Virus record (IMG/VR): IMGVR_UViG_3300025133_000039
From: an uncultured virus (IMG/VR IMGVR_UViG_3300025133_000039)
Lineage: Duplodnaviria > Heunggongvirae > Uroviricota > Caudoviricetes
DNA length: 56,484 bases
Direction: 5' to 3' (one strand)
In this document: positions 3,001 through 55,239 of the stretch, piece by piece
How the letters are laid out: each line of letters opens with the position of its first letter
Numbering within the stretch: the stretch's first letter is position 1
The notes under the pieces: generated by a model
What the model saw: the letters and a program-made list of their open reading frames with translations, nothing else
The model's database searches: none
What the model was told of the DNA's origin: nothing
Program-made: the position numbers and the translations under genes

Positions 3001-3447
3001 GGACTCCGATTCCAGCATCTGGCCAAGGGACGTGCGGATACCTTCGAGTGCAGGGTCATTTCTTTGGAGATCTAAGTTGTCGATAGTCTCAAGTACGGAT
3101 GTGATTACAGCTCGACGAGACTCAGCGCTCTCCGTGAGGATATCTTTAACGAACGTCCCTTTCGTTAGCTGCTCTCTAAAGCGCGCAGCCTGAGCATCCC
3201 GAGTGACAGCTTGCTCCTCGTGGATACGACGAAGGTTATCTCCAACAGAGATAGCCGTATTCTGGGCAGTGTTTGTCTTAAGATTGACAAGAGAGCTTGC
3301 ATCGTTGGACTTAAGCGCACGCCAACCGTGCGCCACGCCGAACATCACTGGAGCTACACCTAGTGCCTGCTTCAGAATGTTCGAGGTTGACTCGATAGGA
3401 GTTCTCGTAATGAGACTCGCCGGTCCGTTGGTGTTGTCGTTTGCCAT
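1..3447 (-). CDS. Giant virion-associated protein (>1149 aa, runs off window edge); possible virion RNA polymerase
   Basis: Open minus-strand frame from ATG at 3447 (TAATG overlap with the upstream stop) to position 1, starting MANDNTNGPASLITRTP. Absent from the ORF track because no stop is in the window. Lies in the structural module. RNAP-like hints (GEGEAIM, TKLFGDLFKG) are weak. Confidence 0.75.
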   Translation of the reverse strand, partial: MANDNTNGPASLITRTPIESTSNILKQALGVAPVMFGVAHGWRALKSNDASSLVNLKTNTAQNTAISVGDNLRRIHEEQAVTRDAQAARFREQLTKGTFVKDILTESAESRRAVITSVLETIDNLDLQRNDPALEGIRTSLGQMLESESDDILRNSEKLIEQAVSTIRETSTESVRREFNRSLNSALDIRSQIASPVVSMKGMGGAGYNKISATELGSAATNFYERINNITQRAGGSVSLVSVKEGSVGVSYYAQIRKGNKFITSVPLELASWGGKNRPGEALKIIRSGEALATPYAATPLFGDAPGIAGKMDELQLAAHGERVRLTKDVVQSSFMFPKMGTASIVGTEEFFVRHFEQRMDKVGGNLGMLDSRTFGEHTLSFSEALPRAALQNDEYGRNLLNAYRTRSQHMTVVGMEALNSNRAFHLQPWLAADASLHPEDSFFHPSSKPSVNRGPFGDTMNVGVNTSSMRGGGVVTQVTSLTTARRGQQLGRDTFIFPHHNQANVTVGRRTDRRVYGGNMSVANDMVSGSMNKAIFFDMSEKKTSTRFGIGEGEAIMPGRTNISSPYVKTVLNPKEHNLSSRKLLNRITHATSKGESVYLTRAEILSHKGALGMGPQGREAFIKAHPDMTGMHLRASGSVTGGRNPQHKIHIHGKAEFSTGRTKLFGDLFKGTTLEADESAIRKMLRGIPVGSSGMTAATLFGEAGMDMNRTLFTSGAMLRKSVDNLVNQMVGGLDLLGLGPWGSNGGADDLHAWFAKGAGLDAATLRGAKTPLTQALKLQRATSFATEVLSAAVYMNDISPQMAGSVLGGAHAVGNRFAGKGFASGLEASIRGSFGEGAVAGVMEGIESKAVIGMGSLTAAPTPYLTYGAAKGSIEPRSFKFLAERLRNTMGMNADEVNEVMTSFLARKENIGRDMSVASGLSKTMSTMIGHTSLGDVRAAHKLGVEGPTLMNWEKFTKSVTAGGGGEAAVEALLRQSPDGLALDFTGNRQVQAAAEKAFGGSSSVFLPGGDILENMKGTSIRAADGSSTEIFPQYVRNVKTLHDDLLRISTAQGAGSKAFRVAQDRLGAFRGNMTDLFAGAMTNVTRGSMLGSVFPEGSSLDMLNDIRGGSNAASKARAIRSYRAASGQAVFMNTAAFTDAMKTFM

Positions 3448-37797: not shown

Positions 37798-38163
37798 GCC
37801 TCCTAAACTGCGAAGCAGTTTACATTTAGAAGTCAAGTCTAAGCTCGACATATAGGGAAAGTCAATTTTGATTATTTATATTTTGGGGTTTGGGCCGCGA
37901 TTCTTGTCAGAAGTCTTTGTCTCTAAGTAGGCGAAATTATTGTGAAAATATATTTTGCAGTACTAGGGTTGGTAGAGGATATATAGGAGATTTGACCAGG
38001 TTAGTGTTGTGTCATTTTGGGAGTACCGTTCATTCGAGCCCACCCCGGTTTAATCCAGCTTTTTTATTTCAACGGTGCGCTGAAGCACCATGGAGATAGA
38101 GACATGCAAGAGGCCTGTCCTCTCGGGACGAGGACATCAGCTAACTCCTAACCTCTAACAAGT

Positions 38164-38200
38164 AAAAAAGATGCACTGCCGCAAGGCAGTGCGCTTTTTT
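38164..38200. terminator. Bidirectional terminator-like hairpin
   Basis: AAAAAAG-ATGCACTGCC-GCAA-GGCAGTGCG-CTTTTTT. Confidence 0.75.
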
Positions 38201-38212
38201 ATTTCTGACGAT

Positions 38213-38925
38213 AGCGTGCGGTACCACCGTCACCTACACACCACCAGTGTGCAGGTAGCAGTAGGGCCGTAGTCGTACCTGTAGTCCCCGTGGGCTACCA
38301 TCCTATACGTATCGTGGGCTCGTACCCAGCATGAATCGGTATGCGTATAGGTTGGCTCTGATGTAGCTGTCGTGTAGCCCCATGTACCTAGTGCATGGGA
38401 TAGGTCACCACCTAGTAGGGTAGGGCATAGCAACCCCTGCCCCACACATGGTGAGTGTACTAACAGGGTGACACCTGGCTATGGGTACCCCTCTCATACC
38501 CGTTAAGAGAGGGGAGGTACGTGGTCCACCTAATAGAAGGACTGAGCATGTGGTGTGGGTAGCGCCCACCACGGCTCCTGTGTGTGCAACGCACACAGTC
38601 ACCGGGTACACCACAGGTAAGTGTACATACGTAGGTCTCACTGCGTAGCGACTAAGGTGTAGTAAGGGGTGTTCCACACACACAACCCCTGAAGGCCTAT
38701 GAGAATACCGGATCCTAGGGGGATACCTAGGGTCGGCGGGCCTGGAGGCCGAAACATCCAGGCAAGGGTCATAGCAGAGATACCGCACCTTCCGTGCGAT
38801 TGAAACCCGGTCTAACCAACCAAAGAATCTCTGTGGTCAGGAAGTAAGTTGGCCTGACACACCTAGCGCCCAGGGTTAAGGGCACCCAGCACCGTTCTGG
38901 TGCTACCCCGCACGATGAAGTGCAT
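38213..38925 (+). ncRNA. Candidate large (~700 nt) structured non-coding RNA or leader
   Basis: No credible ORF. More than 12 consecutive hairpins, many with G.T pairs that work as wobbles only on the + strand. Confidence 0.55.
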
Positions 38926-39917: not shown

Positions 39918-39960
39918 GGGGTGGCGGGTCTTCGGACCCGTCGCCCTGAGCTTTTTTCTT
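39918..39960 (+). terminator. Hairpin with cUUCGg loop plus T-tract
   Basis: GGGTGGCGGGTC-TTCG-GACCCGTCGCCC, then TGAGCTTTTTTCTTT. Confidence 0.75.
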
Positions 39961-40041: not shown

Positions 40042-43000
40042 TTGGAAAACTTCAAGCGTCTGTTCGCCCTCGCGATCAGCCTGCTCGTCTTCGTCGCTAA
40101 GAAGCGACTGTATGGCGTGAAGGCTGCCACAAACCCGAAGGGAATCCTCACCTGGATCCCCTCTAACCTCAACAAGGATATGGGTCACGTCGGCCTCATC
40201 TCCGAAGCCAACCCGGACACCACCCGTTTCGAGATTATCGGAATGGAAGAGTCCATCACCCTGGTGCCGAATGAGGAATGGCACCCCTCTATCGTGACCA
40301 TGGCCTCCTGGAATGCCAAGGAGACCGGTCTGTTCAACTGGACGAAAGTTCAGTCTCTCTTCGATGAGGGAGACCTCATCGTGTCGAAGAAGGCGGAAGA
40401 AGTGGAAGACCACAACCGACGACTCGACGCTCGAAAGGAAGAGCGCGCTGTGAACCGGCGCACTCGCTCCCTGAGGGCTCGTGTCGAATCCTACATCACT
40501 AGCTTCCTGTTGGTGGTGTACAAGAAGATGATGCCTGAGGGTCCGAAGGTTCGTACTCGTTACACTCGGTTCGTGAGCCTGTCTGGGCTCCTGCACCGGA
40601 TGTTCCCGGATCTGCCGATGCCGAGTGTCCAGCTGAAGAACGACATGCCTGCCGATGAGCAGCGTGACGATCTGCCGGTTGCCATTCATCAGGCAGTTGC
40701 TCGTGATGGCCACATGCTGGTCAACCGCAAGCACATCGTCCACCGTGAGATCGTGCCCCTGTTGGCGAAGACCTTTCCGAAGGCCATCGACTTCAGGGCG
40801 TACGTCAAGGGTCTGTGCGCGCCTCTCGTGGCCAACGGTCACAGTCGCGTCGAGGTTCGGTTCGTTCACCTGCAGCATGGCAACAAGAGTGCTGGTGCTG
40901 ATGGGCGTGGCAACATCCACCCGAACCACCCGCTGTTCGCTCAGCTGGGCTACAGCGGACATGGTCCTCGTCCCTGCATCCAGATTCGTGGATGGAACCC
41001 TGACTTGGGATGCTTCATCAAGGGCATCCTGGTTCCGAGCGAGTCGGCAACGGACGCTGAAGGCAACCCCGAGATCCAGGTGGACTGGCTCCAGATCAAG
41101 GGGCTGCTGAAGGAGACGGCAAAGGCGAAGCACAAGCGTGCTGCCAAGAAGGTCTCTGATGGTCAGGCTCTCCACACGTTGGAGATGGCTGAGGCTGAGT
41201 TCGGTACCTACGAGTCGCAGGAAGCTCGTCGGTGGCTGGATGAGGGTCGGATGGTGCTGGACCTGGGTGTGACGAACGTCTTCGACAAGATCGTTCCTTA
41301 CTCCTGGTGCTTCGAAATCCTTGAGCGTGTAGAGGACACGCCTCGTACTCGTGAAATCATTCGCGAGTGGGTGGAAGAAGCGTTCCAGAAGCTGACCTTC
41401 GAGAAGCTGCTGGATTCGGCCTGTGCTCAGAGCGACAACGTTGCTTTCGCTCGCAAGCTGTGCAAGAAGCTCGGCATTGACCCGCTGAGCTTGCGCTTCA
41501 TCATGAAGCAGGTGCAGAAGGCGCTGGGGCAGCGGCTCTGGCTCATCAACCAGGGAGCTGGTAAGAAGGGTGATGGCTTCGTGTCCATTCTGGATGCAAC
41601 GCTGGAGCCTGGAACGTGTGTCCTGCCCTCCATCATGAAGGGTAAGCAGCGCGTGTACCTGCCGGGAGACACCATTGGAATCACTCGGTTCCCGATGGTC
41701 CTGCCTCAGGGTCTGCGTGTTGTGCGTGTGGTCGAGCCGTCCGAGCATCACCTGCTCAAGACGGAAGACGGCATGCAGCACGTCCCGAACGCCATCTGGC
41801 TCCACCCTGACGATCTGGAGATCGGCATGCAGGGTGACGACGATGGAGACGTGGTCATTGTGAACTCGGACCCTCGGGTTGTGGAGTTCTACAAGGAGCG
41901 TATCTCCATGCTGCCTGGTAAGCCGGACGCCATGTACTTGATTGAGCCTGTCAAGGGTGAGAACAAGGACAACCGGCTGGAAGAGCTGCACAGCCTCAGT
42001 GCTGAGGGTCGTGCGCTGGTGGCTAAGGATGGTCGTGGTCCGGTGGGTCTGAGTACCTTCTGGGGAGCGGCGTTCCTGGCGATTGGCAAGCGGGTTCACG
42101 GTCTGAGCATGGCTCACCTGACTCAGGAGTACATCGACTGTGCCAAGCGGATTCCGTTGTGGACGGACCCGCGTCAGGCATCCAATCCGAGCAACTACGA
42201 AGAAGTTCGGCCTGGAATCTGGAAGATCAAGCCCGGTAACACGGTGGAGATGGACTGGGCAGACGATGATGGCATGCTGAATCAGGACCTGGTGACCAAG
42301 TGGGTGCAGAAGCAGTTGGGCATGAAGCTCAACGACATTCTGTCCTGGCGTCAGCCGAATGGTGTGAAGAGCATCATTCTCGACTCGTGGGACATGCCCG
42401 AGGAGCCTGTTGGCAACCTCGTGCACTACTGCTCGCGGACCGCTTTCGAGGTGGCGCAGGGTTGGGCTGAAGAGCAGCTGGGTACTCAGGAGTCCGGTGA
42501 CATGTCGATGCTGGTCGTCGAAGCGCTGGAAGCAGCAGGTCAGGACATGAGTGGTGTTGAGCCGATGGCTCAGGAGCGCTACGTCAAGACCTTGCGAGAG
42601 AAGAGTGGTCTCAACGAGTTCGCCAAGTCCACGCTGTCTGTCATGAAGGCAGGCCTCGATGTGGAGGAGAAGGCTCGTCAGATGGATGCACTGCGTGCCA
42701 TCCTGGCTGGTCACCTCTCGATGCTGAGCATCGAAGAGTTGGCTACCATCTGGGTCACCGAGCTGTCGCAGCGGGATGAGAATGGCAACATTCCTGACCG
42801 GGCTGTCACTGCAGCGTTCCGGGCTGTGTGCTGGGAGGGTTCGCCCGTCCTGGTTGCGCTGAACCTGGAGCACAGCGATCGGTGTGAGTTCGCAGCTGAG
42901 AACATGGACGCCATCATGGCGTGGCTGCAGCACCGCGTTGATACCGGCAAGAACGGGAACTTGTTCCACGCGCTGGCTGAGACCATCTCGTCCAGCGTGA

Positions 43001-43179
43001 AGCACCAGGAAGTCACTGGTGTGGAGCTGCACAAGTGCAAGGACTGCACTACCCTCATGGAAGGCAAGGTCGTGTCCGAGGTCAGGAAGACCAAGGGCTC
43101 GGATGCTGAGAGTGTTGTGAAGGACATCATGTGGTCCGTGAACCGTGAACTCGGTTGGCCCACGAGCCGTCACAGCTAG
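40042..43179 (+). CDS. Single-subunit two-barrel RNA polymerase (YonO / cellular RdRP-like)
   Basis: Ordered motifs DGRG, QIR, KGIL, QIK, TRFP, catalytic GDDDGD (41836-41850) and QEYIDCAK. AGGAG RBS before TTG. 1045 aa. Confidence 0.85.
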   Translation: MENFKRLFALAISLLVFVAKKRLYGVKAATNPKGILTWIPSNLNKDMGHVGLISEANPDTTRFEIIGMEESITLVPNEEWHPSIVTMASWNAKETGLFNWTKVQSLFDEGDLIVSKKAEEVEDHNRRLDARKEERAVNRRTRSLRARVESYITSFLLVVYKKMMPEGPKVRTRYTRFVSLSGLLHRMFPDLPMPSVQLKNDMPADEQRDDLPVAIHQAVARDGHMLVNRKHIVHREIVPLLAKTFPKAIDFRAYVKGLCAPLVANGHSRVEVRFVHLQHGNKSAGADGRGNIHPNHPLFAQLGYSGHGPRPCIQIRGWNPDLGCFIKGILVPSESATDAEGNPEIQVDWLQIKGLLKETAKAKHKRAAKKVSDGQALHTLEMAEAEFGTYESQEARRWLDEGRMVLDLGVTNVFDKIVPYSWCFEILERVEDTPRTREIIREWVEEAFQKLTFEKLLDSACAQSDNVAFARKLCKKLGIDPLSLRFIMKQVQKALGQRLWLINQGAGKKGDGFVSILDATLEPGTCVLPSIMKGKQRVYLPGDTIGITRFPMVLPQGLRVVRVVEPSEHHLLKTEDGMQHVPNAIWLHPDDLEIGMQGDDDGDVVIVNSDPRVVEFYKERISMLPGKPDAMYLIEPVKGENKDNRLEELHSLSAEGRALVAKDGRGPVGLSTFWGAAFLAIGKRVHGLSMAHLTQEYIDCAKRIPLWTDPRQASNPSNYEEVRPGIWKIKPGNTVEMDWADDDGMLNQDLVTKWVQKQLGMKLNDILSWRQPNGVKSIILDSWDMPEEPVGNLVHYCSRTAFEVAQGWAEEQLGTQESGDMSMLVVEALEAAGQDMSGVEPMAQERYVKTLREKSGLNEFAKSTLSVMKAGLDVEEKARQMDALRAILAGHLSMLSIEELATIWVTELSQRDENGNIPDRAVTAAFRAVCWEGSPVLVALNLEHSDRCEFAAENMDAIMAWLQHRVDTGKNGNLFHALAETISSSVKHQEVTGVELHKCKDCTTLMEGKVVSEVRKTKGSDAESVVKDIMWSVNRELGWPTSRHS

Positions 43180-44105: not shown

Positions 44106-44308
44106 ATTGAGATGGAGGGGAGGCCGAAAGGTCTCCCCTCCAGTACTCTTTTATTTGGTACTAACGACGACCTCCGCACACAGGCCTCTTCTCACGCCAC
44201 CATTCCTCCGCGACGACGACAGGCTCGCTTACGCTCGCTAGGTGGTGCTGGCATAGCCCAATCGGGCCTCGCCTTTTTCTTTCCCACTCTTTTCGTTTGG
44301 AGGTGTAC

Positions 44309-44449
44309 GTGAAGAAGCCTCGTAACTGGCATGCCGTCAATGCGAAGTTCCGGTCATCTGCTGGTCCTATGAAGAATAAGAGTCTTCGTGGGTCTGGTAA
44401 GGGGAAAGGGAAGGTTGCGCGCCACCCCAAGCACAAGTCAAAGTACTGA
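44309..44449 (+). CDS. 46-aa basic mini-protein, ArfA-like
   Basis: GGAGG RBS plus GTG. Sequence MKKPRNWHAVNAKFRSSAGPMKNKSLRGSGKGKGKVARHPKHKSKY; KGKG..R..KH resembles the ArfA C-terminal motif. Confidence 0.55.
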   Translation: MKKPRNWHAVNAKFRSSAGPMKNKSLRGSGKGKGKVARHPKHKSKY

Positions 44450-44514
44450 GGTTGAGGCATCCTAGTGGTGCCTCAACTAATCGAATAAACAAGCTCGATT
44501 ACTCTCGCTACGGG

Positions 44515-44707
44515 GTAGTGCAGTCCTCGGGCTCCCGAAATCCAGATAGGCCTGTCTGGATCGACATGGGGGTTTGGTTCTGAGACGGTGACTAGTACCC
44601 TGGGCAGGGAGCTGGTTTTGGGTCGGATGCATGCTGAGCCTCAGTGCCTTAGGGCTCTACCGCATGTCAAACGACCTTTTCCGAGGGGTTCGAATCCCCT
44701 CTGCACT
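44515..44707 (+). ncRNA. tRNA-like ncRNA (7-bp acceptor plus canonical T-arm) with a ~160-nt structured insert
   Basis: AGTGCAG (44517-23)/CTGCACT (44701-07) stacked on AGGGG-TTCGAAT-CCCCT (44684-700), with nested internal stems. Confidence 0.7.
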
Positions 44708-44742
44708 TTCTAATAAACAAGCTCGCTTATGCTCGCTGGATT

Positions 44743-44920
44743 GTGAGAGCTAGAGACAAACCTCTAACGATCAACGGGAGCGCGAGGCTGGAACCATACC
44801 AGTTGCATTCTGCAAGCACACCTCCTACGTGTGGAGTACCAGACACAGTGTGTGTCGTCTGGGGACGTAGGCCGCATGCTCGTTGGAGTTGAGAGTCATA
44901 CCTGTTTCAGGGTGGCTCTC
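44743..44920 (+). ncRNA. Candidate structured small RNA
   Basis: Between motif A and a terminator, with no RBS-led ORF. Stems CTCTAACGA/TCGTTGGAG, CCTACGT/ACGTAGG and CCAGAC/GTCTGG. Confidence 0.55.
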
Positions 44921-44960
44921 TTCTTTTTAATAAAGAACGCTCTCTTACGTTCGCTGGGCT

Positions 44961-45147
44961 GTGCAGGTCTTGATCAGCCTGCTCGCACGACAACAGTGAT
45001 GTACAGCTGGGTCGGGAGGACTACTCTTCCGATTCTGTCGAGCGGTTCATAGGTGGCGCCGAGGTGGCATCTCGGGCAGCAACTCAAGCATACATTCACG
45101 CCAATGGATGGGAGAAGAGAACCTCGACGGAGGTTCTCTTCTTTTTT
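44961..45147 (+). ncRNA. Candidate structured small RNA
   Basis: Between motif A and the terminator AGAAGAGAACCTC-GACG-GAGGTTCTCTTCT-TTTT. Starts GTGCAGG. Internal stems GCTCG/CGAGC, GTCGGGAG/CTTCCGAT and CCGAGG/TCTCGG. Confidence 0.5.
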
Positions 45148-45225
45148 AATAAAAAAGAACCACAAGCTCTCTTACGTTCGCTGGAGGGTGCTGGGACCAT
45201 GTCGGTCCCACACGGAGAGAATACC

Positions 45226-45504
45226 ATGATCGTTGTTACCCGCCACCCCGCGTACTTCCAGTACCTTGTCGAAGAGGGAGTCTGCAAGTCCGACGACGAG
45301 GTCGTCGAGCACGCCACGGTCGCGGAGATCGCAGGGCGTGACGTCGTCACCTCCGGGCTGCCGCTCCACCTTGCAGTGGAGTGCAAGACCCTCACAACGG
45401 TGGGGCTGTTCCTCCCCGCCGAGCTGCGTGGCAAGGAACTGGACATCGAGGACGTGCGCAAGTACGCCCAGCCCGCCGCAACCTACGTCGTGACCGGAGC
45501 CTGA
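45226..45504 (+). CDS. csx16: Csx16 (VVA1548)-like protein, putative cyclic oligoadenylate ring nuclease
   Basis: Signature VTRHP...VVEH...GLPLHLA...LPAELRGKEL..ED...Y.V. GGAG RBS, 92 aa. Confidence 0.75.
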   Translation: MIVVTRHPAYFQYLVEEGVCKSDDEVVEHATVAEIAGRDVVTSGLPLHLAVECKTLTTVGLFLPAELRGKELDIEDVRKYAQPAATYVVTGA

Positions 45505-45619
45505 AGCAGGGAGAAGAGAAGACGAGAGGCGGACCTTACGGGGTTCGCCTCTCTCTTTTAATAAGCTCGCTGACGCTCGCTAGGACTTGAGGCTTCGTCC
45601 TCACAACCAAGGAGGTAAC

Positions 45620-46180
45620 GTGGGAAACACGTTTGGAATGAACCCGTTCGTGCTGCGGCAGGTTGAGGCATCACGCTTCAGCCACTTCCGTGGCTCGCAC
45701 ATCTGCCTGCTGGACATGGTCGCGGAGTCGTTCGACCCTGAGACTCAGCAGGGATACCGACCTGGAGTCTACGAGGTTCCCGTGAACCCCAAGGGCTTCT
45801 TCTCCAACCAGGTGACGCTGGTCGAAGGAGATCTGCTGGTCGGCAAGTTCGAGGCTCGCCGTGAGGGTGAGGCTCCCAGGAAGACCGTTACGACGCTCGC
45901 ACGTCGCAAGTCGGTCGCTGGCTCCGCAACCATCATCATCTACGCCTCCGCTGTCTTGGCGGAAGATGGTGACAACTCGCTTCCTCCGCTGCCGGGGAAC
46001 TACGAGGTGGTGTCGATCAACTGTACGGCAGAAGAGCAGTTGCCCATCTGTCCGGAGGTGCTGATGCACAACCACTTCGGCAGTACTGGTGGCACGAGCA
46101 CGGGTCTGAGCGACTCGGAGTTCGTGGCGGTGCTCAAAGCATCGTTCCTAGCACACCGGGACAAGGCTAGCTGCGGCTAG
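45620..46180 (+). CDS. DUF3228-like protein
   Basis: AAGGAGG RBS plus GTG. Pattern F..RQ, GY.P, EARREGEAP, IY, YEVVSI, P.xP..LMHN...GGT. Confidence 0.6.
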   Translation: MGNTFGMNPFVLRQVEASRFSHFRGSHICLLDMVAESFDPETQQGYRPGVYEVPVNPKGFFSNQVTLVEGDLLVGKFEARREGEAPRKTVTTLARRKSVAGSATIIIYASAVLAEDGDNSLPPLPGNYEVVSINCTAEEQLPICPEVLMHNHFGSTGGTSTGLSDSEFVAVLKASFLAHRDKASCG

Positions 46181-46255
46181 GAGAACTAGGGAGACCACTC
46201 TTCGGGGTGGTCTCCCTAGAACTAATAAATAATGCTTGCTGACGCTCGCTACGCT

Positions 46256-46338
46256 GTGCAGGATTCTACGTTGCACGCGCGCGCACTGGAAGCAATCCGG
46301 CCTTAGGATGGGGTTCGAATCCCTCGTGAGTCCTGCAC
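46256..46338 (+). ncRNA. Degenerate tRNA-like RNA with an elongated acceptor stem
   Basis: GTGCAGGATTC(T)ACG/CGTGAGTCCTGCAC closing stem, GGGG-TTCGAAT-CCCT T-arm and CTGG-AAGCAAT-CCGG anticodon-like arm. Confidence 0.65.
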
Positions 46339-46357
46339 TCTTCAACCAGGAGACACC

Positions 46358-46534
46358 ATGTTCGCACGACTGAAGCGGCTCTTCACCAAGAAGACCACGC
46401 CTCCGCACTACGAGATCTTCACCACCACGTACATCGATGGTGAGTGCTGGATCTGCCAGCGCTCCACTGGGACTCCGATTCGTCGGCTGTCCTCCTTCTT
46501 CAACGACTCCCACAACCAAAGGATGGGACGATGA
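46358..46534 (+). CDS. Small hypothetical protein (58 aa)
   Basis: AGGAG RBS, MFARLKRLFTKK..., ATGA overlap with the next gene. Confidence 0.6.
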   Translation: MFARLKRLFTKKTTPPHYEIFTTTYIDGECWICQRSTGTPIRRLSSFFNDSHNQRMGR

Positions 46535-46992
46535 ACGCATACCAACGACGAAAGGCCCGACGCGCGGCGCTCCGCATGGTGGCCAACTTCCAGACGAAGC
46601 TGTTCCGGGTGCCCGGTACCGCTGCGCACGCCGAGCCGCTGAAGTGCCGAGGCTACAAGTTCTCGGTGCAGGCCTCGGACTACCACTACTCCGAGCCGCG
46701 AGACTGGTGTGCCTACACCGACTACACCGAGATGGAGGTCGCGATCTTCGACTCGGACGGAGACTGGTGTGTCCTGGCCGACGCCGAGGAGCACGAGTTC
46801 GGCACCCGCTTCGAGAAGTGGGACGGAGCGACCACCAGCGTCACACCGTACATGGAAGTCGAGAACATCCAGGCACTGCTGAACGCAGTCGCCCTCGGTG
46901 AGATTCGGCCCATCAAGCTCTCGGACTACCTCCACATGGTGAAGGCTGACCGCGAGATCGAGGCGTGCATCAACGGCATGGACGTGGTCTAG
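46531..46992 (+). CDS. Hypothetical protein
   Basis: ATG at 46531. FSVQAS.YHYSEPR...EVA motif common in phage hypotheticals; biased codons. Confidence 0.7.
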   Translation: MNAYQRRKARRAALRMVANFQTKLFRVPGTAAHAEPLKCRGYKFSVQASDYHYSEPRDWCAYTDYTEMEVAIFDSDGDWCVLADAEEHEFGTRFEKWDGATTSVTPYMEVENIQALLNAVALGEIRPIKLSDYLHMVKADREIEACINGMDVV

Positions 46993-47010
46993 TTAGCAAT
47001 CACGCTAACC

Positions 47011-47088
47011 ATGTACTCCTTTTCTACCGCATTGGAGTGCATTAATAAAGACGGTAGTGGGTCAGCTGTGCCCATCGTACTAACAGCT
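47011..47088 (+). ncRNA. Two tandem H-type pseudoknots in a 3' UTR
   Basis: PK1: ATGTACTCC/GGAGTGCAT plus CTACCG/CGGTAG. PK2: GTGGGT/GCCCAT plus AGCTGT/ACAGCT. Confidence 0.55.
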
Positions 47089-47187
47089 TGTAGGGAGTGG
47101 CTTCGGCCGCTCCCTACTTAATTATAAACAAGCTCTCTTACGCTCGCTGGATCGTGGTAATTCCGAACAACTCTCACCGAGGAAACC

Positions 47188-47358
47188 ATGACCGACTACG
47201 AACCGAACTTCGTCATCCTGACGTACGAGGACCTGTTGCTGCTCGAACTCATCTACACCATCCGTCAGGAGATCGCACGCCAGCGTCGAATCGCTGTCCT
47301 GCTGGATCAGCTGGCCGACACCATGGAAGAGCTGTACGAGCTGGGCTTCCCCTACTAG
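47188..47358 (+). CDS. Small acidic helical protein (56 aa)
   Basis: GAGGA RBS. MTDYEPNFVILTYEDLLLLELIYTIRQEIARQRRIAVLLDQLADTMEELYELGFPY. Occupies its own cassette. Confidence 0.65.
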   Translation: MTDYEPNFVILTYEDLLLLELIYTIRQEIARQRRIAVLLDQLADTMEELYELGFPY

Positions 47359-47436
47359 TCCCTCCGCTGAGCCTGCCCTGTCTGGGTGGGCTCAGCTGGG
47401 TGCAATAAATAAGTGCTCGCTTACACTCGCTACGTG

Positions 47437-47714
47437 GTGGTGAGATGAACAGCTCCCTCTGCAGGCAATGACTCGCTTTCCGTCCTGTGAGTGTCACGCC
47501 TTCATGGAGCCACGTTCACCCGTCGTGTCGAAGACTCTGTCTACAGCTGAACCAAAAAGAACACCGAGGACTCGCGTCCTGTTCGAAGTAGGTACCCATA
47601 AAAGCAAATAAGGCCCGTACTCCCCCTCCGAAACCGGATCGGAACACGAGTAGGACCACAGCGTAATCCGCGCAATGCTGGGATCAAGGTTGTAGGTAGA
47701 GTCTTCGATATGGC
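47437..47714 (+). ncRNA. Candidate structured RNA with a 26-bp G.U-rich closing helix
   Basis: 47522-47547 pairs with 47689-47714 at all 26 positions. Upstream domain TGAAC..GCTCC/GGAGC..GTTCA. Confidence 0.7.
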
Positions 47715-47741
47715 TCAACCTTCTCAATAATAAGGAACAAG

Positions 47742-48023
47742 ATGGAAATCAACTTCAGTCACTTCATCGATTCCCGAGCCAACGCGAAGAAGGCCTTGGC
47801 GGCACTGATTCACCTGTGCAAGGCGTTCGATGTTGATGATCGCGACATCCACGCGATCATTCGTTCGATTGCAGGAACGCAGAACGCAGAGATTCCAGTC
47901 ATCGCCGTCTACGAACTGGGGAATACGATCCCGACCATGAAGAAGATCCAGGTCATCAAGCTGATCCGCATGCAGACCGGCTGTGGACTCCGCGAAGCCA
48001 AGATCGCTGCGGAAAGCATGTAG
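47742..48023 (+). CDS. Ribosomal protein bL12 (L7/L12) C-terminal domain-containing protein
   Basis: KKIQVIKLIRMQTGCGLREAK matches the KI.VIK.VR..TG.GLKEAK signature. AAGGA RBS. Confidence 0.75.
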   Translation: MEINFSHFIDSRANAKKALAALIHLCKAFDVDDRDIHAIIRSIAGTQNAEIPVIAVYELGNTIPTMKKIQVIKLIRMQTGCGLREAKIAAESM

Positions 48024-48181
48024 TCGCATAACACTCGCGTACGCTCGTGACGTGGTGGTGGTTTCTCCTGCGGGGGTGTCTGGCTTCGGCTGGGCACCCT
48101 CGCTTCTTGCCAATAAGACTCGCTTACGCTCGTTGCGGGGTGATGACCTGGCGATGATGCCTTGTCTCAGCAGGAGGGCTC

Positions 48182-48460
48182 ATGCCCAACAAGGAAGACA
48201 AGTCCCTTGCTCCGATGCCGTGGTGGGCCAAGCTCATCGTCGGTGCGACCGCTGTTGGTCTGATCGTGAAGTTCACGCCGATCCAGCAGTGCCTGTACCT
48301 GTTCCTCATGATCGTGATGGTCCCGATGGCCCTGTTCGCAGGAATCGGTCTCATCTCCCAGGGCACCTACGAGGCGCTCCAGGGGAAGATCGCGGAAGCT
48401 CAGGCTGCGTTGCAGGAGCGAGTTGACGAGAAGATGCGGGAACGACGAGCCTCGGCTTAG
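48182..48460 (+). CDS. Small membrane protein with coiled-coil tail
   Basis: AGGAGG RBS and two hydrophobic segments. Confidence 0.7.
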   Translation: MPNKEDKSLAPMPWWAKLIVGATAVGLIVKFTPIQQCLYLFLMIVMVPMALFAGIGLISQGTYEALQGKIAEAQAALQERVDEKMRERRASA

Positions 48461-48514
48461 TCCAACCGTCCGTACTGTAAGCAAGAAGTAAAACCGTACT
48501 AAGGAGTACACCCA

Positions 48515-48958
48515 GTGAAGATTTCCCTTCAGGCCGTCACCGACACGGTCACCGCTGCCGTTCCCGGCACGTTCAAGTTCGCGATGCACGGTGGCAACTG
48601 TCACGTCACCTTCGGCTCCCTCCGGGGTTCCGATGACGAGGCCAAGTGCCGTGCCCTCACCCAGGCTGCCGACGCCCTCCGCGCCGCTGGTCTGGAGCCC
48701 ACGGTCCGCCTGTCCACCCGGTTCAAGGGTGAGGACAACTGGTCCCCGATGCCTCACATCTGGGTCAACCAGCCGTCCGCGCAGGAGCAGGCCACCTCGA
48801 ACCTGGAGCAGCAGGTCGCGACCCTGACGACTCAGTTCTCGCAGCTGATGTCCGCCCTCCAGGCGGGTCAGGCTCAGGCGGCTCCGGCTCCGTCGGGTCC
48901 CGAGGTCGTTCGCAAGCCCTCGAAGGAGTCCGTCAGCACTCCCGACTCGCCCATCTAG
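48515..48958 (+). CDS. Hypothetical protein
   Basis: AAGGAG RBS plus GTG and strongly biased codons. Confidence 0.75.
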   Translation: MKISLQAVTDTVTAAVPGTFKFAMHGGNCHVTFGSLRGSDDEAKCRALTQAADALRAAGLEPTVRLSTRFKGEDNWSPMPHIWVNQPSAQEQATSNLEQQVATLTTQFSQLMSALQAGQAQAAPAPSGPEVVRKPSKESVSTPDSPI

Positions 48959-49043
48959 GGCAAGAAGCTGACTTCCTGAAGTATGGGGGTGGGTCCACAG
49001 TTCCGTGGGCTCACCCCTGACGCTTCATAACTAAGGAGAAACG

Positions 49044-49244
49044 ATGGCTCGTCGTCACGTTTCGTACCGTGTGTACTCGGATCATCCGAAGCACAAGCAG
49101 ACCTCCGTGGATGTGTTCATTCCCGAAGGTCAAGATCCCCTCGTGGCTGGCTTCCGAGCGAGTCACGACCTGCGTCAGGTTCCGATGACGTTCACCCGAG
49201 GCAAGGCCACGTTCAACACGCGGTTCAGCTACCGGAGGAACTGA
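49044..49244 (+). CDS. Hypothetical protein
   Basis: AAGGAG RBS, 66 aa. Confidence 0.7.
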   Translation: MARRHVSYRVYSDHPKHKQTSVDVFIPEGQDPLVAGFRASHDLRQVPMTFTRGKATFNTRFSYRRN

Positions 49245-49537
49245 TGGGATACAACGCAAACCTGGCAGACCCCAAGGCCTGCCTGATCGTTCGGAAGTTC
49301 ATGCGTCCTGTGAAGGGCCGCAAGAACAAGGAACTCGTGCTCCGCGCCTTCATCGGCAAAGAGACCGAGGCCGGCAACTACACCGGCTCGTCGTACCGCT
49401 CGTTTCCGATTCTGGACCGACGCGGCAACTACGACGCAACCAAGTGTGCTGACCGCAACGCCTGTTGGGTCGGACCACGCCTGATTCGTCTCCGTGATGG
49501 AGCCGACATCACCCCGGAGGAAGAGAATGCTTCGTAG
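49244..49537 (+). CDS. Hypothetical protein
   Basis: TGATG coupling and GGAGG RBS. Confidence 0.7.
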   Translation: MGYNANLADPKACLIVRKFMRPVKGRKNKELVLRAFIGKETEAGNYTGSSYRSFPILDRRGNYDATKCADRNACWVGPRLIRLRDGADITPEEENAS

Positions 49538-49745
49538 CCTTCTTCGCATCGCAACTGCCCAACGTGAGGCTTTCACGTCCGCTCTCGTCAACGAGGCTGA
49601 CGTGCTCGGTCCCAAGCTGGTGGAGACCGTCAAGATCTGCGTCCGCTTCAACAAGCAGGAGGAGGGTCGCCGCGAGCGAATCGTCGCCGCCTACACCTCC
49701 TACCTCAAGCAGATCGACGAAGTCCTGGAGGAAGACGATGGCTGA
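49527..49745 (+). CDS. Hypothetical protein
   Basis: GGAGG RBS before ATG at 49527. Confidence 0.65.
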   Translation: MLRSLLRIATAQREAFTSALVNEADVLGPKLVETVKICVRFNKQEEGRRERIVAAYTSYLKQIDEVLEEDDG

Positions 49746-49989
49746 GACGACCAACGACCAGTCGAAGGGGATCAAGTTCGTCTTCCGCAGGGTGAAGGGC
49801 CAGGAGTACTCCCTGCCCTACTCCTACGTGGAGGACCGCTTCGTCGAGAACTCGGCCAGCAACCGCGAAGCCGCCGAGAACGCCAAGGCCTCTGGCTTCA
49901 CCTACGAGACCATGCAGAACAGGTACGGACGTGACAGCGCCAAGCTCCAGGCGGAGCTGAAGCGCAAGCAGCCGGCGATGTTCCTGTAA
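49738..49989 (+). CDS. Hypothetical protein
   Basis: GGAGG RBS before ATG at 49738, followed by a terminator. Confidence 0.7.
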   Translation: MAETTNDQSKGIKFVFRRVKGQEYSLPYSYVEDRFVENSASNREAAENAKASGFTYETMQNRYGRDSAKLQAELKRKQPAMFL

Positions 49990-49995
49990 AGAACC

Positions 49996-50029
49996 ACGTG
50001 AGGATCCCTTCGGGGGTCCTCACGTTTTT
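49996..50029 (+). terminator. Intrinsic terminator
   Basis: ACGTGAGGATCCC-TTCG-GGGGTCCTCACGT-TTTT. Confidence 0.85.
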
Positions 50030-50095
50030 AATAAAGAATTAGGATGACGCACTCGCTTACGCTCGTGCGTTGGTGCTAGGTGACCGTTGTCCTCA

Positions 50096-50188
50096 GCCCC
50101 CGAAGGGGGCAATAAGGTTTAAGGTACGACGCTTCCCCCGAAGGGGGAGACTCTAAAAACATCACCACCATTAAGCCCCGTAAGGGGC
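50096..50188 (+). repeat. Three near-identical mini-hairpins (CCCCC-GAA-GGGGG x2, GCCCC-GTAA-GGGGC)
   Basis: At 50096-50110, 50134-50148 and 50175-50188. Confidence 0.8.
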
Positions 50189-50212
50189 GTAACGTAAGTT
50201 AAGGAGAACAAG

Positions 50213-50404
50213 ATGCCTGTAGGTTGGAACAACCTGGTAGCGAAGCAGAATCATCAAGTGAAGTTCACCTTCACTGACGGGAGCGAAGCGACCGTCACCA
50301 TGGTCAACGACCTGGACGAGGACGAACTCACCGAAAAGCTCAATGCTTGGAGGACTCAAATGGGTGTCGAAGGACTAAAGTACGAGATTCTTACCTCGAA
50401 CTAA
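50213..50404 (+). CDS. Hypothetical protein (63 aa)
   Basis: AAGGAG RBS. Confidence 0.65.
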   Translation: MPVGWNNLVAKQNHQVKFTFTDGSEATVTMVNDLDEDELTEKLNAWRTQMGVEGLKYEILTSN

Positions 50405-50583
50405 GGTTCGTAGGAGAATAGGCACAGAAAAGAACGATTCTAATTCTTGGGGTACACATCCCCATGGAGAAGAGTGTTTAAGAAAATAGAATGGTGTTTT
50501 AGAGGTTTGGCAAAACCCTGAGATATCAGCTATTTACTCCGCGAATCACTCCTGTTTTAGTTCAATCTAGCCACATATCGGAA

Positions 50584-50658
50584 ATAACTCTTCATTTAGG
50601 CCAGATTCGGTTCAGTAATGGACTCGATCTGAAGATAACTCTTCATTTAGGCCAGATT
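50584..50658. repeat. Perfect 24-bp direct repeat ATAACTCTTCATTTAGGCCAGATT x2
   Basis: At 50584-50607 and 50635-50658, within an AT-rich non-coding stretch. Confidence 0.9.
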
Positions 50659-50683
50659 TCTCTTCGCTTACGCTCAGTGCGTG

Positions 50684-50972
50684 GTAGAGGTAGGCAGAGT
50701 TAGCACATAACTTTCCCTACCCGATAAGGAAGTAAATCTCTCACTTCCATAACTGAATAGACCTAGTTCCTATGGTCTAGTAAGAGAGATGAAGGAGTAT
50801 GTGCACAGTCAGGGTGAGGTCGTCGGCGGCCTCACCCTTTGATTTACTGATGCTTCGTACTTCGTACTAATGTGAAGTAGGAGAGACGAGAGTAAGTGTT
50901 AGGTACCAACGTAAGTCATAAAACCCCTTGCAGGGCAACCACTTACTCCACCTAACCCCTTGATACCTCTAC
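50684..50972 (+). ncRNA. Candidate 289-nt structured RNA
   Basis: Starts at the motif-A predicted +1. GTAGAGGTA pairs with TACCTCTAC (50964-72), followed by TCTTTTT. Internal stems AGGGTGAGGTCG/CGGCCTCACCCT and GAGTAAGTG/CACTTACTC. Confidence 0.65.
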
Positions 50973-51285
50973 TCTTTTTCATCTACCAACTAATCTCTTA
51001 GTTCGAACTAAAGGCTTAGTTGTAACAACCTGACGGAATAATCACGAATAAGGCTGAGATAAACCCCTGAGTCTCCGAACTCAAGGATTGAGTCTACTCG
51101 TTAAGAGTATTGCGATGGGGATAGTGATATCCCATCGACTAGATCATAGATAAGAGTTCTTATCTTGTAGTAGGTATACGTGCTCAGGCAGGTTTGTTTG
51201 GCTCGCGCTCGTCGCTGAGCTGACTACTACACATCGAGGTCGAAACAAACATCGCATTCAGCCTGCTCGTCAAAAGGAATAACAC

Positions 51286-54942: not shown

Positions 54943-55239
54943 ATGAAGCTCTATCTGGATGATGAAAGAACCACTCCAGAGGGGTGGTTCCGAGTCTATA
55001 CTGCTCAAGAAGCAATTGATGTGCTGAAGATGGGGCTAGTGGAAGAGATTAGTCTTGACCATGACCTTGGAAACAAAGTACCTGGTAGTGGGTATGACGT
55101 GCTTCTCTTCATTGAAGAACAAGTATTCCTGTGGGGTGTTAGGCCGCCGATCATCTACATCCACACAGCCAACCCTTCAGCTCGAATCAAGATGGAGTCT
55201 GGGAAGAGAGCCATCGAAAAGCGGTGGAACAACCGTTAA
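54943..55239 (+). CDS. Cyclic-phosphate-processing Receiver-domain protein
   Basis: LYLDDER..P.GW, ISLDHDLG, GYDVL, IHTANP signature. AGGA RBS. Confidence 0.8.
   Translation: MKLYLDDERTTPEGWFRVYTAQEAIDVLKMGLVEEISLDHDLGNKVPGSGYDVLLFIEEQVFLWGVRPPIIYIHTANPSARIKMESGKRAIEKRWNNR

Follow-up and report, generated by a model that had tools for sequence, protein, structure and literature searches.

Thirteen small DNA hairpins as likely start signals for a phage RNA polymerase

Polymerase genes and the motif A array

The window (the whole stretch of 56,484 nucleotides that was analysed, from an uncultured member of the Caudoviricetes) contains the gene of a single-chain RNA polymerase and, downstream of it, an array of short units each headed by a small repeated element, motif A. 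The features outside the units are the following.

1–3447, minus strand: candidate virion RNA polymerase gene, 5′ 1149 codons of an open frame that runs off the window
38060–38077, plus strand: motif B (T-run, TTT, then ATGG/ACGG-like), candidate pre-early promoter
40042–43179, plus strand: single-chain two-barrel RNA polymerase of non-virion type, 1045 aa, assigned by alignment, model and Foldseek
50584–50658, no strand: two identical 24-nt direct repeats in an AT-rich stretch (43.6% GC)

In the alignment of 96 homologues of the 1045-aa protein the metal-binding DxDxD motif (D599-D601-D603) is invariant. Foldseek of its model (pLDDT 85) gave QDE-1 as the best match (E 9e-14, TM 0.46), together with P74-26 gp62 (E 3e-7) and P23-45 gp64 (E 7e-7), and the T7/N4-type Pol I-like right-hand fold is absent among the matches listed. 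One relative passes the cut-off of PF05183, of which the window protein falls short (17.1 vs 23.8). As modelled, the protein is a two-barrel polymerase of the QDE-1/gp64/YonO clade, with the double-psi beta-barrel fold in one chain; the single-subunit polymerase of the first-pass annotation is retained as a single chain, its fold being corrected to that of QDE-1 and P23-45 gp64, which is not T7-like. The enzyme would be a relative of RNA-interference enzymes.

The product of 1–3447 matches (25.6% over 1148 aa, E 7e-58) a 1756-aa DxDGD protein of a complete relative, G004, whose gene sits among structural genes, and is probably a second, virion polymerase; its catalytic motif would lie beyond the window edge. 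Motif B, with further copies at 39953, 43254 and 43743, resembles the AT-rich promoter of the P23-45 virion polymerase. It heads the 1045-aa polymerase gene and, in relatives, genes upstream of the polymerase, and motif A starts only after that gene. The second polymerase gene and the AT-rich pre-early motif suggest a two-polymerase relay.

All 13 copies of the 17-mer previously reported were recovered, every one intergenic and on the plus strand. They are listed as hairpins of the template (minus) strand, with the plus-strand start of the 17-mer in brackets.

44222–44240, minus strand (44223): copy 1, template-strand hairpin, inferred start 44245
44492–44510, minus strand (44493): copy 2, inner pair C-G changed to A-T
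44720–44738, minus strand (44721): copy 3, heads ORF-poor unit u3 (44743–44928)
44938–44956, minus strand (44939): copy 4, heads ORF-less unit u4 (44961–45148, terminator included)
45165–45183, minus strand (45166): copy 5, heads Csx16-family gene 45226–45504
45564–45582, minus strand (45565): copy 6, followed by TT, heads gene ~45620–46180
46233–46251, minus strand (46234): copy 7, heads RNA u7
47131–47149, minus strand (47132): copy 8, heads 56-aa gene 47188–47358
47414–47432, minus strand (47415): copy 9, one single change, a template-strand G·T wobble
48032–48050, minus strand (48033): copy 10, heads 63-nt unit 48055–48117
48117–48135, minus strand (48118): copy 11, heads conserved six-gene operon 48182–49989
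50047–50070, minus strand (50051): copy 12, 6-bp outer stem, heads leader 50073–50195 and gene 50213–50404
50661–50679, minus strand (50662): copy 13, two outer pairs changed together

A profile of these 13 sites, which it contains by construction, scores nothing else in the 56-kb window above 13.1 bits. The flanks described by the first-pass annotation were also confirmed: in 12 of 13 copies GT stands 5 nt further on (GTG in ten, GTA in two), the copy at 45565 being the sole exception; AATAA occurs within 25 nt upstream in nine, and ten closely follow the end of a strong hairpin, one of these hairpins being the end of the 44515 RNA itself. As had been claimed, the +1 G pairs with the 3′ end of its unit at 46256 (p 0.99) and 50684 (p 0.88); the closing helix of 44515 begins at +3, not +1. 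Counting also the copies of a close relative, L026, G occupies the fixed downstream place in 21 of 24, as read from the sequence. No sigma-70 promoter was found between 43300 and 50460, that is, across the array.

Motif A as a base-paired element, in the window and in relatives

Motif A had been described as two GCTCGCT heptamers one helical turn apart, a description that fails because just 3 of 13 copies have both heptamers intact and the deviations compensate each other as base pairs. The direct repeat was ruled out, as the stem positions co-vary as base pairs: in the 24 copies of the window and L026 there are 17 double-change cells, which hit all five stem pairs and were equalled in 0 of 500 shuffles, slid controls giving at most three. 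The three single changes, at pairs 1-16, 2-15 and 6-11, each give a G·T on the template strand. Pair 5-12 is broken in 4 of 24 copies and the terminal 0-17 pair shows three G·T on the plus strand. The TC/TC columns, GA/GA on the template, are invariant in 24 and 23 of the 24 copies. The template core is GCGNNAGC in 6 of 13 copies, cGNNAg in nine and GNNA in eleven; in the parts of PMC13037366 and PMC10085684 available, GCGNNAGC is an extra-stable DNA mini-hairpin and CGAG/CGAG a sheared G·A block. By its letters motif A is a hairpin that fits the template strand, with tandem G·A pairs and a GNNA loop. An inverted repeat in which pairing is kept over sequence, and a stable G..A template-strand loop, are features that it has in common with N4-type hairpin promoters. 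Standard DNA energies give means of only −1.9 (template) vs −1.5 kcal/mol, so that extrusion would need supercoiling or a helper; in N4-type hairpin promoters extrusion depends on supercoiling and SSB. The candidate helper is encoded as follows.

48515–48958, plus strand: family-conserved 147-aa protein with homologues in relatives

These homologues are in L007, L012, L109 and L026; the protein obtained no Pfam or PDB assignment, and its tail presumably resembles those of single-strand-binding proteins.

The exact 17-mer is present in 72 viral loci, only three of them (two phages) near this polymerase family, and is therefore a generic element; in unrelated viral contigs (71 exact copies) GT stands at that place four times and AATAA upstream four times.

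In 15 loci of the polymerase family 65 hairpins of this class are downstream-sense vs 8 upstream-sense, with 14 and 17 antisense in ~126 and ~120 kb, counts that overstate independence because the definition was picked after seeing the data and the copies are related to each other. In relatives at 25–34% polymerase identity the polymerase gene is followed by hairpins whose stems are perfectly Watson-Crick paired and unrelated in sequence, the loop class being the same. In G004 all ten such hairpins lie on the polymerase strand within 0.9–38 kb, one of them ~90 nt before tRNA genes. Among 53 distant hairpins G occupies position 16 after the loop in 37 and position 17 in 35; part of the downstream G signal is ribosome-binding site. 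Five of the 15 loci (L004, L009, L011, L013, L014) have 0–2 downstream hairpins, not above background, and L001 and L110 only two each; L110 repeats the order hairpin, 12 nt, GTG, T-arm. In L002, L003 and L006 T-rich tracts follow the hairpins, which could be ordinary terminators. The complete relative G005 showed neither hairpins nor a 48515 homologue.

Small proteins and folded RNAs of the units

The unit of copy 1 encodes a 46-aa basic protein (44309–44449), 87% identical in L026. Among the small-protein labels proposed earlier, Csx16 stands (45226–45504, PF09652, 52.5 vs 25 bits cut-off, E 6e-14), the bL12 C-terminal label of 47742–48023 is just under the Pfam cut-off (25.1 vs 25.9 bits), DUF3228 is weak (gene ~45620–46180, E 0.037; 65% identical in L026), and ArfA found no match in Pfam, PHROGs or NCBIfam. 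The 48055–48117 unit, little more than one hairpin, is 85% identical in L026, where the six-gene operon is colinear (75%); its genes 48182 and 48515 have homologues in distant relatives. The leader 50073–50195 is hairpin-rich. Comparison with this one close relative bears out the modular character of the array, whole units being gained and lost, with content also swapped and order kept. Whole-unit indels would fit the proposed shuffling by recombination between motifs; the sequence shared at the leader swap is the ribosome-binding site and not motif A.

Several units begin with conserved structured non-coding sequence, for which there is comparative support. Of the six folded units announced earlier, 44515, 46256, 47437 and 50684 are reasonably supported, 44743 and 44961 weakly.

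44515–44708, plus strand: RNA u2, ~194 nt, 12-bp acceptor and T-arm minihelix, folding z −2.8
46256–46338, plus strand: RNA u7, 83-nt tRNA-like leader, aligned by hand to L026, z −2.0
47437–47730, plus strand: RNA u9, ~294 nt, z −4.2 and −3.4
50684–50980, plus strand: RNA u13, ~290 nt, z −4.3 and −4.7

With z of −1.2 for 44743 and −1.3 for 44961 without its terminator, and with 15 coding windows of the polymerase gene reaching −3.45, only 47437 and 50684 stand out by energy alone. The Rfam 15 search retrieved no family at gathering threshold in the window or L026, and ARAGORN no tRNA or tmRNA in the window, there being no cloverleaf with anticodon arm or tag frame. Structures were compared between two sequences, window and L026; u2 and u3 are known from one sequence and absent in L026, no homologue of u2 being found, and the diverged L026 counterpart of u4 keeps two hairpins and the terminator (z −0.3).

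In u2 the loop is TTCGAAT and CCA is not encoded; its minihelix recalls minimal tRNA-like RNAs such as the tRNA-like domain of tmRNA and YrlA. In u7 a long closing stem is followed by a D-like arm, a 3-bp stub arm and a T-arm, the arm order of mascRNA/menRNA, although the match to the mascRNA model is weak (19.5 bits, E 3.7, far below the gathering score of 42.5). Of its 25 hand-aligned pairs, 17 are the same in L026, 5 compensatory, 1 one-sided and 2 broken; an RBS and ORF follow with no terminator between. By what we take to be the criteria of minimal tRNA-like RNAs, u2 and u7 have no CCA, no G3·U70 and no tag frame, and the arm order of the bacterial Y RNA YrlA presumably differs from that here. 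Most likely both are tRNA-shaped RNAs presenting the tRNA elbow. That u7 serves as a processing or 5′-protecting handle is possible at somewhat less than even chances; that the two are decoys for tRNA-binding host proteins is doubtful, and equally so that they are decayed tRNA relics.

RNA u9 has a 5′ irregular hairpin, a stem of ~27 bp and a multibranch head. It precedes the bL12-like gene in the window and is free-standing in L026, where the homologue is 73% identical, with four compensatory pairs in the consensus fold; folds made on one genome and tested on the other kept 11/20 and 10/19 changed pairs (P 0.07 and 0.05). RNA u13 has a 9-bp closing helix, an H-type pseudoknot and a T-run at its end. 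All 47 modelled pairs are kept in L026, three by compensatory change, one of them in the pseudoknot stem, and the shuffle control (56/500) is not significant with two sequences. It may act as a primer or regulator of replication at the repeats beside it, a rather doubtful role; the repeats are possibly an origin or protein-binding sites.

A hairpin promoter reading, its alternatives and related systems

The 13 tiny hairpins are most likely start signals for the phage's own RNA polymerase, and the promoter-like character and the tie to that polymerase claimed by the first-pass annotation receive comparative support. We propose, with moderate confidence, that in a large tailed phage with two polymerases this locus forms the early region of the second wave, motif A being the template-strand hairpin promoter of the 1045-aa enzyme. 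In the model, the virion polymerase would start at motif B and make the 1045-aa polymerase, which would read motif A in the form of a hairpin that the template strand of the DNA extrudes, its stem having two or three outer pairs, then two of the sheared G·A type and two inner ones, closed by a GTNA loop. RNA synthesis would begin at a G, 5 nt past the stem. Transcription of the preceding unit would stop at the hairpin and A-rich tract upstream, which would also help the strands to open, and each unit would yield a short transcript for small proteins or folded RNAs.

The same hairpins could be promoters read by the virion polymerase, or by the host polymerase with a phage factor, the 1045-aa enzyme reading something else. 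The hairpin promoters of N4 belong to its virion enzyme in the partial account available, a virion polymerase candidate exists at 1–3447, and there are relatives that have the gene of the 1045-aa family but lack the hairpins; however, the array lacks sigma-70 sites, and motif B heads the polymerase gene with motif A only after it, in the same order as in P23-45, which makes this reading unlikely. Acting as antisense RNA, a GNRA-like hairpin with a U-tract (the reverse of AATAAAC) could terminate antisense transcription, the units being processed out of longer transcripts or having their promoters elsewhere. In 23 of 24 copies it is indeed the minus-strand RNA that folds more stably (means −5.3 and −3.3), and on that strand the 8 nt following the hairpin include at least five T in 6 of 13 copies. 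The tract is nevertheless missing in the other seven, the hairpin is weak for a terminator, no minus-strand genes are directed into the region, and neither the fixed far-side GT nor the 5′ ends at closing helices would be explained; we hold antisense termination to be quite unlikely.

Motif A could also be an operator bound as duplex DNA by a dimeric repressor, or a site at which cassettes are exchanged by recombination. Such a role would suit a quasi-palindrome and the whole-unit gain and loss between window and L026, but not stem letters that are free if paired around a fixed asymmetric loop, nor the conserved unit order with its single swap at shared RBS sequence, and no recombinase was identified in the window; its probability is very small. 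Smaller still is that of single-strand priming signals for primase: such mini-hairpins occur at the G4, St-1 and alpha3 origins and at the plasmid ssi site ssiA (in the part of PMC13037366 available), the 17-mer is common in unrelated viral contigs and the last copy borders the AT-rich repeats, yet the array packs 13 copies into 6.5 kb, each preceded by a terminator-like hairpin and followed by an RBS or folded RNA, which is a transcription layout, and hairpin position tracks the polymerase gene across the family.

The template-strand hairpin promoter has its closest parallel in N4, whose early promoters, in the accessible parts of PMC4496689, are short template-strand hairpins with a sheared G·A loop and stem letters free if paired, transcription starting a few nt beyond the stem. 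Geometry and placement match those of motif A, with starts here inferred from sequence. The N4 enzyme, however, is T7-like and virion-packaged, and its 3-nt loop is centred at −11, whereas here a two-barrel enzyme, 13 copies, tandem G·A inside the stem and a 4-nt GTNA loop at −13 to −16 are found. The proposed relay resembles that of P23-45, which passes from AT-rich to GC-rich promoters (PMC10770324 and its Supplementary Data 1, in part); in the available text an AT-rich motif stands right after terminators and before the non-virion polymerase gene, and the GC-rich motif after the gene, as motifs B and A do here. Its gp96 (virion) and gp64 (non-virion) polymerases share the two-barrel fold of the 1045-aa protein, but gp64 has ~600 aa, the 1045-aa protein is structurally closer to QDE-1, the GC-rich promoter has no cGNNAg hairpin, and that text describes no ncRNA array. 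In the T4-type PeSL cassettes of RB49 and phi1, a terminator and promoter punctuate small non-essential genes (PMC2839356, in part); repeated punctuation with unit gain and loss is common to both, whereas PeSLs use sigma-70 promoters and host polymerase, the array here being without −35/−10 elements, and mini-circles and motif recombination are PeSL features; the whole-unit indels seen here would fit these, with order kept in the one relative compared.

For most single-chain two-barrel polymerases, how promoters are recognised without sigma is an open question. The window brings together within 11 kb the enzyme, 13 naturally varied copies of its predicted promoter, which differ by compensatory changes, and the predicted start bases, so that the promoter question becomes a simple in vitro test. 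If true, the reading would offer an orthogonal transcription system of small size and would mean that hairpin promoters arose a second time independently, and the units give candidate RNA families absent from Rfam, including predicted tRNA mimics, that bear on phage use of RNA against hosts. The joint reading, in which an RNAi-type phage polymerase family reads hairpins sigma-free and fires at least four novel RNAs, two of them host-targeting elbow mimics, is offered tentatively, as unlikely to hold in full. Under it, sigma-free initiation would be a convergence with N4, and the mimics would, early in infection, target host defence or the translation machinery.

Motif A and its probable fold on the template strand

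The motif A array at 44223..50972 is real and well beyond chance. The 13 copies described by the first-pass annotation were all recovered on the plus strand, 12 of them with GT 5 nt downstream, and scanning of the window with the 13-copy profile gave no further site above 13.1 bits. That the motif usually follows a hairpin and AATAA holds as a tendency, a strong upstream hairpin being found at 10 of the 13 copies and an upstream AATAA at nine. Around 71 exact copies of the 17-mer in unrelated viral contigs, GT and AATAA occur at four each, a rarity that makes the surroundings of the array copies particular to this phage. The letters of the 17-mer were not found in the literature searched.

The same annotation had read the motif as a direct repeat of two heptamers. 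Both are intact in only 3 of the 13 copies, and the co-variation of stem positions rules that reading out. In the 13 window copies plus 11 from L026, a close relative with about 85% identity in the polymerase gene, the co-varying pairs are 0-17, 1-16, 2-15, 5-12 and 6-11. Both sides are changed in 17 cells (shuffles, 0/500; slid controls, at most 3) which, since orthologous copies are related, amount to about six distinct kinds of change and not to 17 events. The TC/TC columns, which are unpaired, hardly vary; the single changes in well-kept pairs (n=3) give C·A on the plus strand, that is, G·T on the minus strand. On the minus (template) strand the order is outer stem, GA/GA, two pairs and GTNA loop. 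The core GCGNNAGC, an extra-stable DNA mini-hairpin as outlined in PMC13037366, is exact in 6 of the 13 cores, GNNA loops are present in 11 of 13, and, as summarized in PMC10085684, the G·A pairs of a CGAG/CGAG block are sheared. Two observations count against a hairpin: pair 5-12 is broken in four copies, and the nearest-neighbour DNA energies are small, -1.9 for the minus and -1.5 for the plus strand, the minus strand being lower in 22 of 24. The alignment points to motif A being a hairpin on the template strand, whose sign is the substitution of G·A for Watson-Crick pairs. This substitution, together with the RNA units, is what the locus adds.

Polymerases and their putative promoters

The polymerase family is large, with 166 representatives, and its DxDxD motif is invariant in an alignment of 96 homologues. 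A structure model built from 96 sequences (pLDDT 85; an earlier 7-sequence fold with pLDDT 51 was set aside as poor) matches QDE-1, plant RDR2 and Thermus phage gp62/gp64, matches by which a T7-type polymerase was rejected. As modelled, the 1045-aa product of 40042-43179 (+), for which the gene caller set a TTG start at 40042, is a two-barrel enzyme, and RNA polymerase activity would follow from this fold. An open-ended frame of 1149 codons, absent from ordinary ORF lists, occupies window positions 1-3447 (-). The structural genes of the complete related genome G004 include a second protein, with DxDGD, whose homologue starts at 3447 and extends past the window edge; this product is a candidate virion RNA polymerase. 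The relatives have another signal ahead of their polymerase gene, the T-run, AT-rich motif B.

Motif B copies in the window
38060, motif B
39953, motif B
43254, motif B
43743, motif B

Motif B is similar to the AT-rich promoter used by the virion polymerase of P23-45, as described in PMC10770324. The simplest reading is a relay, in which the virion enzyme would start at motif B and the non-virion 1045-aa enzyme at motif A. N4 promoters, in the outline given by PMC4496689, share the geometry of motif A, a template-strand hairpin shortly before the start, although the N4 enzyme is unrelated to the 1045-aa polymerase; the second promoter of P23-45 is without a hairpin of the motif A kind. A two-barrel polymerase with hairpin promoters was not found in the literature searched, which holds few subscription papers.

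Downstream of the polymerase gene, relatives at 25-34% identity have hairpins whose stems are unrelated in sequence and mostly perfect and whose loops are TNAC or TNGC, equivalent to GNNA on the template; an A-rich tract is often kept too (L109, L007, L012, L110), and in a quick tree of the family the loci with both A-rich tract and hairpin group on one side. By one definition, set post hoc, 15 loci gave 65 downstream-sense and 8 upstream-sense hairpins against 14 and 17 in antisense (126 and 120 kb), five of the 15 being without enrichment and two more having only two hairpins. In G004 all 10 hairpins lie on the polymerase strand within one 37-kb stretch, one of them preceding tRNA genes; the three of G005, another relative, are scattered. 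The 17-mer itself is widespread in viruses, 69 of 72 loci having no polymerase of this family close by, which shows it to be a reusable single-strand element; the reading of the hairpins as single-strand priming signals for primase, very improbable in our judgement, draws support from this distribution. We consider that the motif A copies are probably hairpin promoters of a two-barrel phage polymerase, which accounts for the data better than any rival.

As a separate observation, the G·A-zipper mini-hairpin of the 69 unrelated viral loci (within L037-L108) is often located near the end of a contig or in intergenic DNA rich in AT.

RNA units and modularity of the array

At least six cassettes had been thought to begin with folded RNAs. 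Those at 44743 and 44961 are ORF-poor and not unusually stable, and those at 46256, 47437 and 50684 have pair support from L026. RBS-led frames within units are absent or of at most 31 codons. With Infernal/Rfam none of the units reaches threshold, and the top matches by E-value are terminator hairpins or chance. As a yardstick for the folds, z of coding controls reaches -3.45; yardsticks for tRNA-like RNAs are YrlA arm order, tmRNA identity elements and mascRNA processing.

The RNA at 46256 is tRNA-like, and 25 pairs aligned by hand with L026, which favours the model, gave five compensatory, one one-sided and two broken. In each of the two genomes it leads to an RBS, yet the gene that follows is not the same. 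Its D-like loop (window 46277-46284; L026 5645-5638) contains an 8-mer whose self-complementarity is kept through two changes, a candidate inner hairpin or kissing-dimer site. At 44515, in a single sequence, a 12-bp acceptor-plus-T-arm minihelix encloses about 150 nt of further hairpins. The unit at 47437 has z of -4.2 and -3.4; when one sequence was folded and the other tested, changed pairs were kept in 11/20 and 10/19 (P 0.07, 0.05), the nine broken each way lying partly in poorly aligned stretches. Eight matches to its core pattern look like chance and were rejected. At 50684, 47 of 47 modelled pairs are kept, with three compensatory, one in a pseudoknot stem, in a model drawn from both sequences (shuffle control 56/500); folding one and testing the other gave 2/2 and 10/16 (P 0.24, 0.001). 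Searches of 678 kb from 33 sources with covariance models of the 46256 RNA and the 47437 head recovered the two training sequences and no distant homologue. In the same region of relatives the RNAs are tRNAs, tmRNA and GOLLD RNA, and L109 has a hairpin-headed ORF-less unit with z -2.8.

RNAs downstream of the polymerase in relatives
L125 12627-13051, GOLLD RNA (G003)
L128 7741-8105, tmRNA (G004)

As to the proposed shuffling of cassettes, L026 lacks units 2, 3 and 5 and has an additional ORF-less unit as well as new ORFs; units 6 and 7 have exchanged leaders, and the order is otherwise kept. Such gain, loss and leader swap resemble PeSL cassettes, as outlined in PMC2839356, in outcome; the comparison gave no sign of exchange at the motif, and unlike PeSL cassettes the array is without sigma-70 promoters.

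Genome setting

The window comes from the genome of a tailed phage; the longest contig with the polymerase has 118 kb. The plus-strand block with the 1045-aa gene and the array has a GC of 58-59% against 51%.

Late block
from 37851 leftwards, - strand, terminase, portal, capsid and sheath genes

No tRNA or tmRNA was found in the window. Polymerase and array are unmatched among annotated phages, and the polymerase also among plasmids; the closest virus record, G001, spans structural genes only. No close relative turned up when viral contigs were scanned with single proteins or with the exact motif, and of 21 metagenome loci carrying the motif L026 alone shows homology to the array region. At the protein level, relatives with 77-91% identity are P0003, P0004, P0010, P0011, P0175 and P0176. 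No RNA holder is listed for the region, a result that bears neither way on expression. The bins that contain two of the distant relatives are titled Gemmatimonadetes and Isosphaeraceae, a host hint that may reflect binning artefacts.

The protein atlas gave no usable match for the 45620 protein, encoded behind motif A copy 6, or for the 147-aa candidate helper at 48515, to which we presumptively assign an SSB tail pattern; one array mini-protein presumably resembles ArfA. Two phage products, a Csx16-family protein (45226-45504) and a PF20274 protein with a cyclic-phosphate-processing receiver domain (54943-55239), may be linked to counter-defence or RNA repair.

The roughly 690 nt that separate the late block from gene 38928 (38230-38920) contain no convincing gene; headed by motif B and kept in L026 (E 1e-89), this stretch may be a further RNA or a genome end. 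Hairpins of the cGNNAg class at 38173-38192, which doubles as a plus-strand terminator, and 37402 (-) face the late genes as possible late promoters. Nested hairpins fill 130 ORF-less nt at 46995-47125, between gene 46531 and motif A copy 8, and a long ORF-less hairpin at 51185-51270 precedes the next gene block without a motif A head. About 120 nt at 50950-51070 are essentially identical to the L026 end (flanks near 78%); together with the pair of 24-nt direct repeats at 50584/50635 and the AT-rich DNA around them, they may mark an origin or packaging site; R-loop priming is known at origins.
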